From: Escherichia coli | GTDB lineage: Bacteria; Pseudomonadota; Gammaproteobacteria; Enterobacterales; Enterobacteriaceae | Direction: 5' to 3' (one strand) | Length of the DNA stretch: 64,000 nucleotides | Assembly (NCBI RefSeq): GCF_029227855.1 | Contig: NZ_CP074356.1 | Shown here: piece by piece, positions 1 to 11,311 of the stretch | Layout: every line of letters begins with the position of its first letter | How positions within the stretch are numbered: the first letter of the stretch is position 1 | Made by a program: the position numbers and the translations under genes | Notes under the pieces: model-generated | The model's database searches: none | What the model was told of the DNA's origin: nothing | Seen by the model: only the letters and a program-made list of their open reading frames with translations

Positions 1-503
<503 letters not shown>

Positions 504-527
504 TAACGCTACGCCTGTAAAGCGCAC

Positions 528-590
528 TGGCAGTTCCCTCTCCCCTCTGGGGAGAGGATTAGGGTGAGGGGCGCAAACCCGCTCCGGGGC
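528..590. repeat. GC-rich palindromic intergenic element (REP/BoxC-like) between glnH and glnP
   Basis: Inverted repeat cctctcccctctggggagagg followed by gggtgaggggcgc...gctccggggcc; resembles E. coli intergenic repeat families but the family was not assigned. Confidence 0.35.
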
Positions 591-641
591 CATTAATTAC
601 CCTGAATTTGATTATTTACACCACGGTAACAGGAACAACAT

Positions 642-1301
642 ATGCAGTTTGACTGGAGTGCCATCTGGCCTGCCATTCCGCTTCTGATTGAAGGTGCCAA
701 AATGACCCTGTGGATTTCGGTCCTCGGTCTGGCTGGCGGCCTGGTGATCGGATTGCTGGCAGGTTTTGCACGCACCTTCGGTGGTTGGATAGCCAACCAC
801 GTCGCGCTGGTCTTTATTGAAGTGATCCGCGGCACACCTATCGTCGTCCAGGTGATGTTTATCTACTTTGCCCTGCCGATGGCGTTTAACGACTTACGCA
901 TCGACCCGTTTACTGCGGCGGTGGTCACCATCATGATCAACTCCGGCGCGTACATTGCAGAAATCACGCGTGGTGCGGTGCTGTCTATTCACAAAGGTTT
1001 TCGTGAAGCAGGACTGGCGCTCGGTCTTTCACGTTGGGAAACCATTCGCTACGTCATTTTACCGCTGGCACTGCGTCGTATGCTGCCGCCGCTGGGTAAC
1101 CAGTGGATCATCAGCATTAAAGACACCTCGCTGTTTATTGTTATCGGCGTGGCGGAACTGACCCGTCAGGGGCAAGAAATTATTGCCGGTAACTTCCGCG
1201 CCCTTGAGATCTGGAGCGCCGTGGCGGTGTTCTATCTGATTATTACCCTGGTGCTGAGCTTTATTCTGCGTCGTCTGGAAAGAAGGATGAAAATCCTGTG
1301 A
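642..1301 (+). CDS. glnP: Glutamine ABC transporter permease
   Basis: 219-aa ORF, polytopic membrane protein with an ABC permease signature, length equals GlnP; sits between glnH and glnQ. Confidence 0.93.
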
Positions 1302-2020
1302 TTGAATTTAAAAACGTCTCCAAGCATTTTGGTCCAACCCAGGTGCTGCACAATATCGATTTGAACATTGCTCAGGGCGAAGTCGTGGTGATTATCGGGC
1401 CGTCCGGTTCCGGTAAATCGACCCTGCTGCGCTGCATCAACAAACTGGAAGAAATCACCTCCGGCGATCTGATTGTCGATGGCTTGAAGGTTAACGATCC
1501 GAAAGTTGACGAGCGCCTGATTCGCCAGGAAGCGGGTATGGTGTTCCAGCAGTTTTACCTTTTCCCGCATCTGACGGCTTTGGAAAATGTGATGTTTGGT
1601 CCGCTACGCGTGCGTGGCGCGAACAAAGAAGAGGCGGAAAAACTGGCACGTGAGCTGCTGGCGAAAGTCGGTCTGGCAGAACGTGCACATCACTACCCTT
1701 CCGAACTTTCTGGTGGTCAACAGCAGCGTGTGGCCATCGCCCGCGCGCTGGCGGTGAAGCCGAAAATGATGTTGTTTGATGAACCGACTTCCGCTCTTGA
1801 CCCGGAACTGCGCCATGAAGTGCTGAAGGTTATGCAGGATCTGGCTGAAGAAGGGATGACGATGGTGATCGTGACCCACGAAATCGGTTTTGCCGAGAAA
1901 GTAGCTTCGCGCCTGATCTTTATCGACAAAGGCCGGATTGCGGAAGATGGCGATCCGCAGGTGTTGATCAAGAACCCACCGAGCCAGCGCTTGCAGGAAT
2001 TTTTGCAGCACGTCTCTTAA
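1298..2020 (+). CDS. glnQ: Glutamine ABC transporter ATP-binding protein (GTG start overlapping the glnP stop)
   Basis: 240-aa ORF starting [22 protein letters not shown] with Walker [10 protein letters not shown] and ABC signature LSGGQQQRV; matches GlnQ. Confidence 0.95.
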
Positions 2021-2027
2021 CTTCTCA

Positions 2028-2053
2028 GCCTCCCTTTCCCCCGAAAGGGAGGC
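2028..2053 (+). terminator. Stem-loop downstream of glnQ (gcctcccttt-cccccgaaa-gggaggc)
   Basis: Perfect inverted repeat immediately after the glnQ stop; no strong T-tract, so terminator function is uncertain. Confidence 0.3.
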
Positions 2054-2136
2054 ACACCAGATTCCTCTCATTTAAAATCGCCCCTCCCCCAGCATCTATA
2101 CTTATCTTTTTGCTCTGTTTTCTCACTGGAGGAGTC

Positions 2137-4362
2137 ATGCGGTGGATCCTGTTCATCCTCTTCTGCCTGCTGGGCGCACCTGCCCACGCGGTATCCATAC
2201 CCGGCGTTACAACCACAACGACAACGGACTCAACGACTGAACCGGCCCCGGAACCGGATATCGAACAAAAAAAAGCGGCCTATGGCGCACTGGCGGATGT
2301 GCTGGATAATGACACCTCGCGTAAAGAGTTGATCGACCAGTTGCGCACCGTCGCCGCTACGCCCCCTGCGGAACCGGTACCAAAGATCGTGCCGCCGACG
2401 CTGGTTGAAGAGCAAACCGTGCTGCAAAAGGTCACCGAAGTCAGCCGCCATTATGGTGAAGCCCTTTCCGCCCGCTTCGGGCAACTTTATCGCAATATCA
2501 CCGGCTCCCCGCATAAGCCGTTTAATCCACAAACCTTCAGCAATGCGCTGACCCATTTTTCAATGTTAGCGGTATTAGTGTTTGGTTTTTACTGGCTGAT
2601 TCGCCTGTGCGCACTTCCGCTGTATCGCAAAATGGGCCAGTGGGCGCGGCAAAAAAATCGTGAGCGCAGTAACTGGCTGCAGCTTCCGGCGATGATTATC
2701 GGGGCGTTTATTATCGACCTGCTGTTACTGGCACTGACATTATTTGTCGGTCAGGTTTTAAGCGACAACCTGAATGCGGGCAGTCGCACCATCGCTTTCC
2801 AACAAAGTTTGTTTCTCAACGCCTTTGCCCTGATTGAATTTTTCAAAGCTGTACTACGCCTGATTTTTTGCCCAAACGTGGCGGAACTGCGCCCGTTCAC
2901 GATTCATGACGAGACCGCCCGTTACTGGAGCCGTCGCCTGAGCTGGTTAAGCAGCCTGATTGGCTATGGCCTGATTGTCGCCGTGCCGATTATCTCTAAT
3001 CAGGTGAATGTACAGATAGGTGCGCTGGCGAACGTCATCATTATGCTGTGCATGACCGTCTGGGCGTTGTACCTGATCTTTCGTAATAAAAAAGAGATTA
3101 CCCAGCATTTGCTCAACTTCGCGGAGCATTCGCTGGCCTTTTTCAGCCTGTTTATCCGCGCCTTTGCGCTGGTGTGGCACTGGCTGGCAAGTGCCTATTT
3201 TATCGTGCTGTTTTTCTTTTCGTTGTTCGATCCGGGCAACAGCCTGAAATTTATGATGGGTGCAACGGTGCGCAGCCTGGCGATTATTGGTATCGCAGCA
3301 TTTGTTTCCGGTATGTTTTCCCGCTGGCTGGCGAAAACCATCACCCTCTCGCCACATACTCAGCGTAACTATCCGGAGCTGCAAAAACGGTTGAATGGCT
3401 GGCTGTCGGCGGCGCTGAAAACGGCGCGTATTCTGACAGTCTGCGTGGCGGTAATGCTGCTGTTGAGCGCATGGGGATTGTTCGATTTCTGGAACTGGCT
3501 GCAAAACGGTGCGGGGCAGAAAACCGTAGATATCCTGATCCGTATCGCACTCATTCTTTTCTTCTCGGCGGTTGGCTGGACAGTGCTCGCCAGTTTGATC
3601 GAAAACCGGCTGGCTTCGGATATTCATGGCCGCCCGCTACCCAGCGCCCGTACGCGTACCCTGCTGACGCTGTTTCGTAACGCGCTGGCGGTGATTATCA
3701 GTACCATCACCATCATGATTGTGTTGTCGGAAATCGGCGTTAATATCGCGCCATTGCTGGCAGGTGCCGGGGCATTAGGTCTGGCTATCTCTTTTGGTTC
3801 GCAAACGCTGGTGAAAGATATTATCACCGGGGTATTTATTCAGTTTGAAAACGGCATGAACACTGGAGATTTGGTTACTATCGGGCCGTTGACCGGTACT
3901 GTGGAACGGATGTCGATTCGCTCCGTGGGCGTGCGTCAGGATACCGGGGCGTATCACATCATTCCGTGGTCTTCGATAACTACCTTTGCTAACTTCGTCC
4001 GCGGCATTGGTTCGGTGGTGGCAAATTACGATGTTGATCGCCATGAAGATGCTGATAAAGCCAATCAGGCACTGAAAGATGCGGTAGCTGAATTGATGGA
4101 AAACGAAGAAATTCGCGGGTTGATTATCGGTGAACCGAACTTTGCCGGGATTGTCGGCTTAAGCAATACCGCATTTACACTGCGTGTTTCGTTCACCACG
4201 CTGCCACTCAAACAGTGGACGGTCCGCTTTGCCCTCGACAGCCAGGTGAAAAAACATTTCGACCTGGCGGGTGTTCGCGCGCCTGTACAGACTTATCAGG
4301 TGCTGCCTGCTCGGGGCGCGGCCCCGGCTGAACCGCTGCCGCCGGGGGAGCCAACGCTTTAA
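2137..4362 (+). CDS. ybiO: MscS-family mechanosensitive channel
   Basis: 750-aa ORF; internal ATG at 2137 preceded by GGAGGA gives the 741-aa YbiO ([18 protein letters not shown] signal-like N-terminus); conserved MscS core in the C-terminal part. Confidence 0.9.

Positions 4363-11232: not shown

Positions 11233-11311
<79 letters not shown>

Follow-up and report, generated by a model that had tools for sequence, protein, structure and literature searches.

To our knowledge, BoxC repeats have had no function assigned to them since their description in the 1990s, and studies of these repeats have centred on DNA triplex formation. A literature table quoted in PMC2267715 lists BoxC as a repeat of 56 bp with 32 copies. 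Later descriptions call the family PIT (potential intrastrand triplex) elements and TMECO, the E. coli intrastrand triplex motif of Holder et al. 2015 (PMC4666352), a paper that also cites earlier work by Hoyne et al. 2000 and Bachellier et al. The core consensus runs from a C-block through 3-6 nt to a G-block and, after 3 nt, a second G-block; copies with TTA as the second loop are called type A, and the strict TMECO pattern is CCCTCNCCC-N3-6-GGGNGAGGG-N3-GGGNGAGGG (PMC4666352). No functional correlation was found for the BoxC family as a whole (PMC4666352). REP/BIME hairpins are mRNA 3' stabilisers in binding-protein-dependent transport operons such as malE-malF, as summarised in PMC5927463.

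Here we describe a hairpin-forming repeat in another binding-protein-dependent operon, glnHPQ of E. coli. The DNA analysed is a stretch of 64,000 nucleotides, hereafter the window, the start of which falls within glnH (Table 1). The glnH-glnP-glnQ region corresponds to positions 846460-848004 of E. coli K-12 MG1655, in reverse orientation.

The glnH-glnP repeat and its BoxC relatives

A first-pass annotation of the window had pointed out a strong inverted repeat in the glnH-glnP spacer. An inverted-repeat search recovered the same string as a perfect repeat, composed of CCTCTCCCC (537-545) and GGGGAGAGG (549-557), two arms of 9 nt that are 100% complementary and enclose a 3-nt loop. The 21-mer formed by these arms and the loop has a single occurrence in the 64-kb window, where shuffles lead one to expect 0, and the motif GGAGAGG-NNN-AGGGTGAGGG also occurs once, versus 0.08 expected occurrences. 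Perfect 9-bp repeats with loops of 3-8 nt were found at 19 positions in the window, compared to 1.9 +/- 1.4 in dinucleotide shuffles. Therefore, the spacer hairpin is not unique as a structure. Perfect 9-bp hairpins are a normal, non-random feature of this genome, and the copy in the spacer is non-random and not exceptional.

The RNA folding proposed in the first-pass annotation also yielded a stable structure, as the hairpin at 537-557 folded alone has a predicted free energy of -16.8 kcal/mol. Compared with shuffles, the fold has modest z-scores, -1.1 at 528-595 and between -2.0 and -2.5 over the whole spacer, because shuffled C and G runs also fold well. A second repeat that had been described downstream of the first, gggtgaggggcgc...gctccggggcc, turned out to be weak: it is not an exact repeat and was missed at a 6-nt seed. 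In this region RNAfold offers only a 6-bp GGGGCG/CGCUCC helix with one G-U pair, which is displaced by other pairings once the whole spacer is folded.

We retrieved 13 MG1655 regions with published copies of the repeat and aligned the window with 11 type-A BoxC/TMECO copies of MG1655. The core of the window copy agrees with the type-A consensus at 34 of its 36 positions; among the 12 copies, 32 columns show no variation. By this alignment, the spacer palindrome is the core of one BoxC (PIT/TMECO, type A) copy of about 65 bp. The glnH-glnP element is already known, as the catalogued dispersed repeat BoxC. Failure to align with BoxC copies was explicitly tested for; the window copy aligned over its core and both flanks, and the repeat-family search that the first-pass annotation had suggested is thereby answered with BoxC. 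The sequence is also dispersed: an 81-nt blastn query (520-600) matched a median of 12 places per genome, with a maximum of 26, in 5425 of 5426 complete E. coli genomes.

The extent of the unit was defined by the shared 5' flank, the core and the shared 3' flank. The 5' flank reads AAAGCGCAC..GGCAGTT, with a family consensus of ..GCnCGGACGGTC, and its GCGCAC...GGCAGTT portion aligns with the family flank. The 3' flank contains AAACCCGC, which is an exact match to the copy between yihS and yihR and is similar to the family consensus AACAnGCCnGCAC. Both flanks of the window copy align with the family less well than the core does. The interval first given for the element, 528-590, thus covered the core, while the alignment places the repeat unit at about 519-584.

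As to its family, the element had been likened to repeats of the BoxC/REP type. The BoxC half of this assignment holds, given the alignment and the dispersal, and the REP half does not. We rejected REP membership after the consensus palindrome of that family (of the GCCGGATG...CATCCGGC type) was not found in 504-641. The only full match to the REP pattern in the window is a palindrome at 11283-11306, GCCGGATGACATGGCTCATCCGGC.

The window copy resembles described BoxC/PIT/TMECO elements in its three-block core, TTA loop, flanks and intergenic site, between the glnH stop (503) and the glnP start (642), as well as in the multi-copy dispersal of the family. It differs from them by two core substitutions, T541 and A558. 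The first stands in place of the usual G ('type A mm' copies) and results in a perfect Watson-Crick stem. The second stands in place of a consensus G, leaves a shorter stem of 9 bp and departs from the strict TMECO pattern: block 2 reads GGGAGAGGA, with one mismatch (the A at 558), and a relaxed pattern was needed to find the copy. Because A558 breaks the strict search pattern, the glnH-glnP copy is missing from the 23-copy MG1655 table of PMC4666352. The supplements of that paper mention neither glnH nor glnP, and the RefSeq annotation of MG1655 has no repeat feature at the glnH-glnP locus.

Two further degenerate BoxC copies were found in MG1655 at 632098(+) and 4231270(-), each with a Term-seq 3' end (PMC7815308). 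One has GGGTGAGAGGG as its block 3, the other GGGAAAAGGG as its block 2. Neither is listed in the 23-copy TMECO table, which means that the strict pattern as published gives too low a count for the BoxC family. Within MG1655, the glnH-glnP copy is not the only one inside an operon, since copies likewise lie between pstA and pstB and between yihS and yihR. The pstA-pstB copy is situated within a second ABC transporter operon, pstSCAB.

Table 1. Coordinates of the glnHPQ genes, the BoxC copy and the mapped RNA end in the window
Feature	Position	Strand	Details
glnH, 3' end	stop 501-503	+	start of window falls within glnH
glnH-glnP spacer	504-641	+	138 nt
Whole BoxC (PIT/TMECO type A) unit	519-584	+	C-block first on the glnHPQ sense strand; from alignment
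Block 1, pyrimidine arm	536-545	+	CCCTCTCCCC; from alignment
RNA hairpin of blocks 1 and 2, glnH 3' untranslated region	537-557	+	9 bp, 3-nt loop, -16.8 kcal/mol (predicted)
Loop 1	546-548	+	TCT; varies among Escherichia strains
Block 2, purine arm	549-558	+	GGGGAGAGGA; from alignment
Loop 2	559-561	+	TTA; defines type A (PMC4666352); invariant in the 12-copy alignment
Mapped RNA 3' end	561	+	MG1655 847200 (minus strand); PMC7815308, Suppl. file 1
Block 3	562-571	+	GGGTGAGGGG; potential third strand of an intrastrand purine-motif DNA triplex
3' flank of BoxC unit	572-584	+	CGCAAACCCGCTC
glnP	642-1301	+	
glnQ	1298-2020	+	

An RNA 3' end just past the hairpin

The curated Term-seq table of Adams et al. 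for K-12 lists a 3' end at 847200(-), with 30,331.8 reads in LB at OD 0.4 and 130,459 in LB at OD 2.0 (PMC7815308, Suppl. file 1). The position is present in all three condition sheets, of which the third is M63. Coordinate conversion places this end at the A of the TTA loop, 4 nt past the last paired base of the hairpin. For this conversion we read the sequence column of the table as the 3' end flanked by 50 nt on its upstream side and 10 nt on its downstream side, which we checked against sgrS. The Term-seq data come from K-12, another strain than that of the window; the stem and its surroundings are identical in the two, and only three positions of the spacer distinguish MG1655 from the window: 513, 522 and 547, of which 547 lies in the loop. 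The BoxC copy is thus transcribed within glnHPQ, and K-12 contains an abundant RNA that ends 4 nt after its stem. Transcript mapping, another check that had been called for at this spacer, was in this way already available in published form. The TERMITe supplement (PMC12207403) has no glnH entry.

Other BoxC copies show similar ends. The stems near ilvC (3959467) and after lldD (3781065, in the opposite orientation) have 3' ends at exactly +4, and two degenerate BoxC copies have Term-seq 3' ends at +2 and +8. For comparison, in the same table a REP-like hairpin after can, which lacks a U-tract, has its end at +4, and the sgrS terminator has its end at +7, inside the U-run. Since BoxC copies have 3' ends at +4, as does the hairpin after can, BoxC hairpins in vivo behave like other hairpins without U-tracts that mark RNA 3' ends.

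The spacer hairpin was rejected as a canonical intrinsic terminator. Its stem-loop is G/C-rich, as in such terminators, but no U-tract follows the stem directly, where the tail reads ATTAGGGTGA (also given as AUUAGGGUGA). A terminator scan of the spacer found no terminator-like site on the + strand, and no sigma-70 promoter-like site was found on this strand of the spacer either. An Rfam covariance scan of 1-3000 at a permissive threshold returned only chance-level matches, with E-values of at least 2.3 and scores far below the gathering thresholds.

Terminator-like structures do occur nearby. A nested perfect inverted repeat (GCCTCCCTTTC...) at 2028-2050 directly follows the glnQ stop and is probably the terminator hairpin of the operon; it escaped the simple terminator scan of the + strand. 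On the minus strand, opposite the glnH 3' end, two terminator-like hairpins with T-rich tails were predicted at 510-526 and 483-499. Both probably arose by chance or mirror a weak sense-strand structure read in reverse.

The spacer within Escherichia and across Enterobacterales

A 211-nt query spanning the spacer was at least 80% covered at the glnH-glnP locus in at least 5401 of the 5426 complete E. coli genomes. Therefore, the BoxC insertion at this site is essentially fixed in E. coli. About 19 E. coli genomes showed only partial coverage of the spacer. In one strain, B2.3 (NZ_CM185023.1), the IS21-family element ISEc10 (istA/istB) is inserted in block 1, at the equivalent of window position ~540/541, and separates glnH from glnPQ; this is the only genome with such an insertion that was looked at.

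Across 11 Escherichia spacers, the two stem arms and the segment 586-641 show no variation, and loop 1 reads TCT, TAT or GCC. Block 3 carries a G-to-A change, GGGTGAAGGG, in four sampled strains and a 1-nt deletion in O157:H7. In this small sample of 11 sequences and about five mutational events, the conserved stem and variable block 3 suggest that the RNA hairpin, rather than the triplex, would be what is conserved.

For two genomes recorded as E. coli, L015 and L018, glnP DNA identity with the window is only about 96%, and on this divergence they are probably cryptic Escherichia lineages. L018 has BoxC in the spacer; L015, like E. albertii and E. whittamii, has a REP-like hairpin instead. 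The spacer cassette thus differs between close lineages.

To look beyond Escherichia, we scanned species-representative genomes for GlnP, which gave 80 loci, and the glnH-glnP spacer could be delimited in 79 of them. The shortest spacer measures 75 nt and the longest 466 nt. In most of the spacers that were inspected, the 3' part with the glnP ribosome-binding region is recognisable, whereas the 5' part is completely different between groups. Every one of the 79 related spacers contains a hairpin with a strength of at least -14.9 kcal/mol (median -21), and all of them fold better than their dinucleotide shuffles (median z of -2.56, with 72% below -2). When the 80 spacers including that of the window were sorted by pattern, half (40) had REP-like hairpins (GCCCGG..CCGGGC) and 25 had hairpins of the GGGGCG..CGCCCC type, 17 of which are followed by a T-run and are terminator-like. 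Five had long palindromes, one had an ERIC-like element, and nine were unclassified by the patterns used; those of the unclassified spacers that were inspected contain hairpins too. BoxC is present in only two of the 80 spacers, those of the window and L018.

The ERIC-like element is found in Serratia sp. H1w, where the spacer measures 232 nt. In Intestinirhabdus alba the spacer is expanded to 466 nt. These two spacers represent further repeat turnover at the locus.

The terminator-like hairpins of other Enterobacterales are located at the same position as the E. coli BoxC copy, soon after the glnH stop and upstream of both the conserved GlnZ site and the glnP ribosome-binding site. They differ from it in that a GGGGCG..CGCCCC stem is followed by a T-run, which is lacking after the BoxC stem. 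These comparisons suggest an ancestral hairpin after glnH, probably a leaky terminator, in whose place repeats have settled time and again. Such repeated replacement could reflect selection for a hairpin, or it could reflect a tendency of the repeats to land at hairpin sites.

The GlnZ site itself is found at 620-631 (ACCACGGTAACA), just upstream of the glnP Shine-Dalgarno sequence AGGA (631-634). The GlnZ seed (nt 5-16) pairs with it at -18.4 kcal/mol in a calculation restricted to the seed. GlnZ, a small RNA derived from the glnA 3' UTR, represses glnP via this region (PMC9731577; Walling et al. preprint).

Possible roles of the BoxC hairpin

We favour, with moderate confidence, a reading in which the BoxC hairpin defines the 3' end of a glnH-only RNA by blocking exonucleases. 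Once transcribed as part of the glnHPQ mRNA, blocks 1 and 2 would fold into a 9-bp G/C hairpin. This hairpin may then stop 3'-to-5' exonucleases that trim transcripts cut or terminated further downstream, and the outcome would be a stable glnH-only RNA, as REP hairpins give after malE. Block 3 lies beyond the RNA 3' end, appears to be decaying in E. coli, and is probably dispensable for such a role. The parallel with the REP/BIME hairpins of malE-malF is one of arrangement: in both cases a G/C hairpin occupies the intercistronic region directly 3' of a periplasmic binding-protein gene, lacks a U-tract and has an RNA 3' end a few nucleotides past its stem. There is no sequence relationship between the two, and stabilisation of glnH over glnPQ by BoxC would be the counterpart of what is described for REP/BIME.

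The binding protein is usually needed in excess, and glnP is under separate repression by GlnZ. An effect of the hairpin on the GlnH:GlnPQ ratio is plausible, although a large effect is unsupported by the decay screen of Dar and Sorek. That study included glnQ-glnP-glnH among the 390 operons that were analysed for differential decay (PMC5927463, S2), a set filtered against internal intrinsic terminators and strong Rho termination, and glnHPQ does not appear in the resulting list of 47 differentially decaying operons (PMC5927463). The screen thus lends no support to a large difference in stability during exponential growth in LB.

Compared with protection, some direct, U-tract-independent termination at the hairpin is less likely, given the missing U-tract and the negative outcome of reporter assays. 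According to the earlier assays cited in PMC4666352, PIT/BoxC elements have no promoter or terminator activity and do not affect RNA polymerase. These results count against termination, not against an exonuclease barrier. The first-pass annotation had offered an attenuating terminator or a stabiliser that sets the binding-protein-to-permease expression ratio as a possible function of the repeat; for the ratio, two published screens give no support. What survives is an element that marks or protects a transcript end, in line with the strong Term-seq end and with a hairpin in all related species examined; a canonical attenuating terminator is contradicted by the missing U-tract and the negative assays.

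A hairpin-located 3' end can also be a passive by-product of decay that leaves protein ratios unaffected. Accordingly, the main alternative to exonuclease protection is that BoxC is a neutral or selfish repeat that entered a permissive site and was fixed by drift or hitch-hiking, with the 3' end as a passive decay intermediate and the output of GlnH, GlnP and GlnQ unchanged. We regard this as possible, though clearly less probable than protection. It would fit the family, for which the account in PMC4666352 gives no bias in functional class or distance along with the negative reporter assays, and the copies of which occur in all contexts: convergent gene ends, divergent promoters and the operons pstA-pstB and yihS-yihR. 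It would also agree with glnHPQ not being flagged as differentially decaying (PMC5927463), and with E. albertii, E. whittamii and L015, close relatives that manage with a different hairpin. However, all 79 related spacers keep a strong hairpin despite complete sequence turnover. The stem is invariant in the sampled Escherichia while loop and block 3 change, and the 3' end is abundant in three conditions, both of which speak against a purely passive repeat.

Less favoured still, and in our judgement unlikely, is an attenuator inside the operon, in which partial termination after the BoxC hairpin, without a U-tract and perhaps aided by Rho/NusG, would lower transcription of glnPQ relative to glnH. 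The end at +4 is sharp and reproducible, and a canonical hairpin with a T-run is found at the same position in about 17 or more related species, so that attenuation after glnH is probably ancestral. Moreover, a steady-state difference without a difference in decay would be missed by the S3 list of Dar and Sorek, from which glnHPQ is indeed absent. Conversely, the tail after the stem (AUUAGGGUGA) and the empty + strand terminator scan of the spacer argue against termination, as does the passage of glnHPQ through the filter against intrinsic terminators and strong Rho termination. In addition, the Rho-region table of PMC7815308 does not list 847200, and an end at +4 is also given by a REP-like hairpin without a U-tract.

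A role at the DNA level, where the single-stranded three-block triplex would stall polymerases and promote rearrangement or insertion, making the locus a hotspot of instability, is doubtful. Block 3, placed antiparallel to block 2, gives allowed triads (G.G:C, A.A:T, T.A:T) at nine of ten positions in register. Oligonucleotides of the family form stable triplexes in vitro, as seen by CD and NMR for the family consensus only, and strains show more rearrangement at TM loci (PMC4666352). At glnH-glnP, one strain has an IS21-family element in block 1. Against this, DMS footprinting in vivo gave no sign of the triplex (PMC4666352), and the locus is stable, as the element is kept in nearly all E. 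coli genomes. The substitutions and the deletion seen in E. coli fall in block 3, without which no triplex can form, and the consensus G at 558 has been lost from the glnH-glnP copy.

Finally, we consider it very improbable that BoxC is a portable U-tract-independent attenuator, a mobile repeat that replaced the ancestral glnH terminator and sets the glnH:glnPQ transcription ratio, in which the hairpin and the G-rich block 3, acting in the displaced non-template DNA strand or in RNA, would halt RNA polymerase 4 nt past the stem.

What this analysis adds to the description of BoxC is small: published RNA 3' ends coincide with BoxC hairpins, one substitution let the glnH-glnP copy escape the 2015 catalogue, the stem rather than the triplex block appears to be conserved in E. 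coli, and unrelated hairpins hold the same spacer position across Enterobacterales. If the RNA role is not borne out, the element is an ordinary, already catalogued repeat. Because it combines an abundant 3' end 4 nt past the stem with unrelated hairpins at the same position in 79 related species, the glnH-glnP copy is a convenient test case for a role of BoxC at the RNA level, as a 3'-end-protecting hairpin equivalent to REP. A role of the BoxC hairpin in uncoupling glnH from glnPQ is plausible. If true, glnHPQ would be one more ABC transporter operon in which the binding-protein gene is uncoupled from the permease genes, alongside the repression of glnP by GlnZ.
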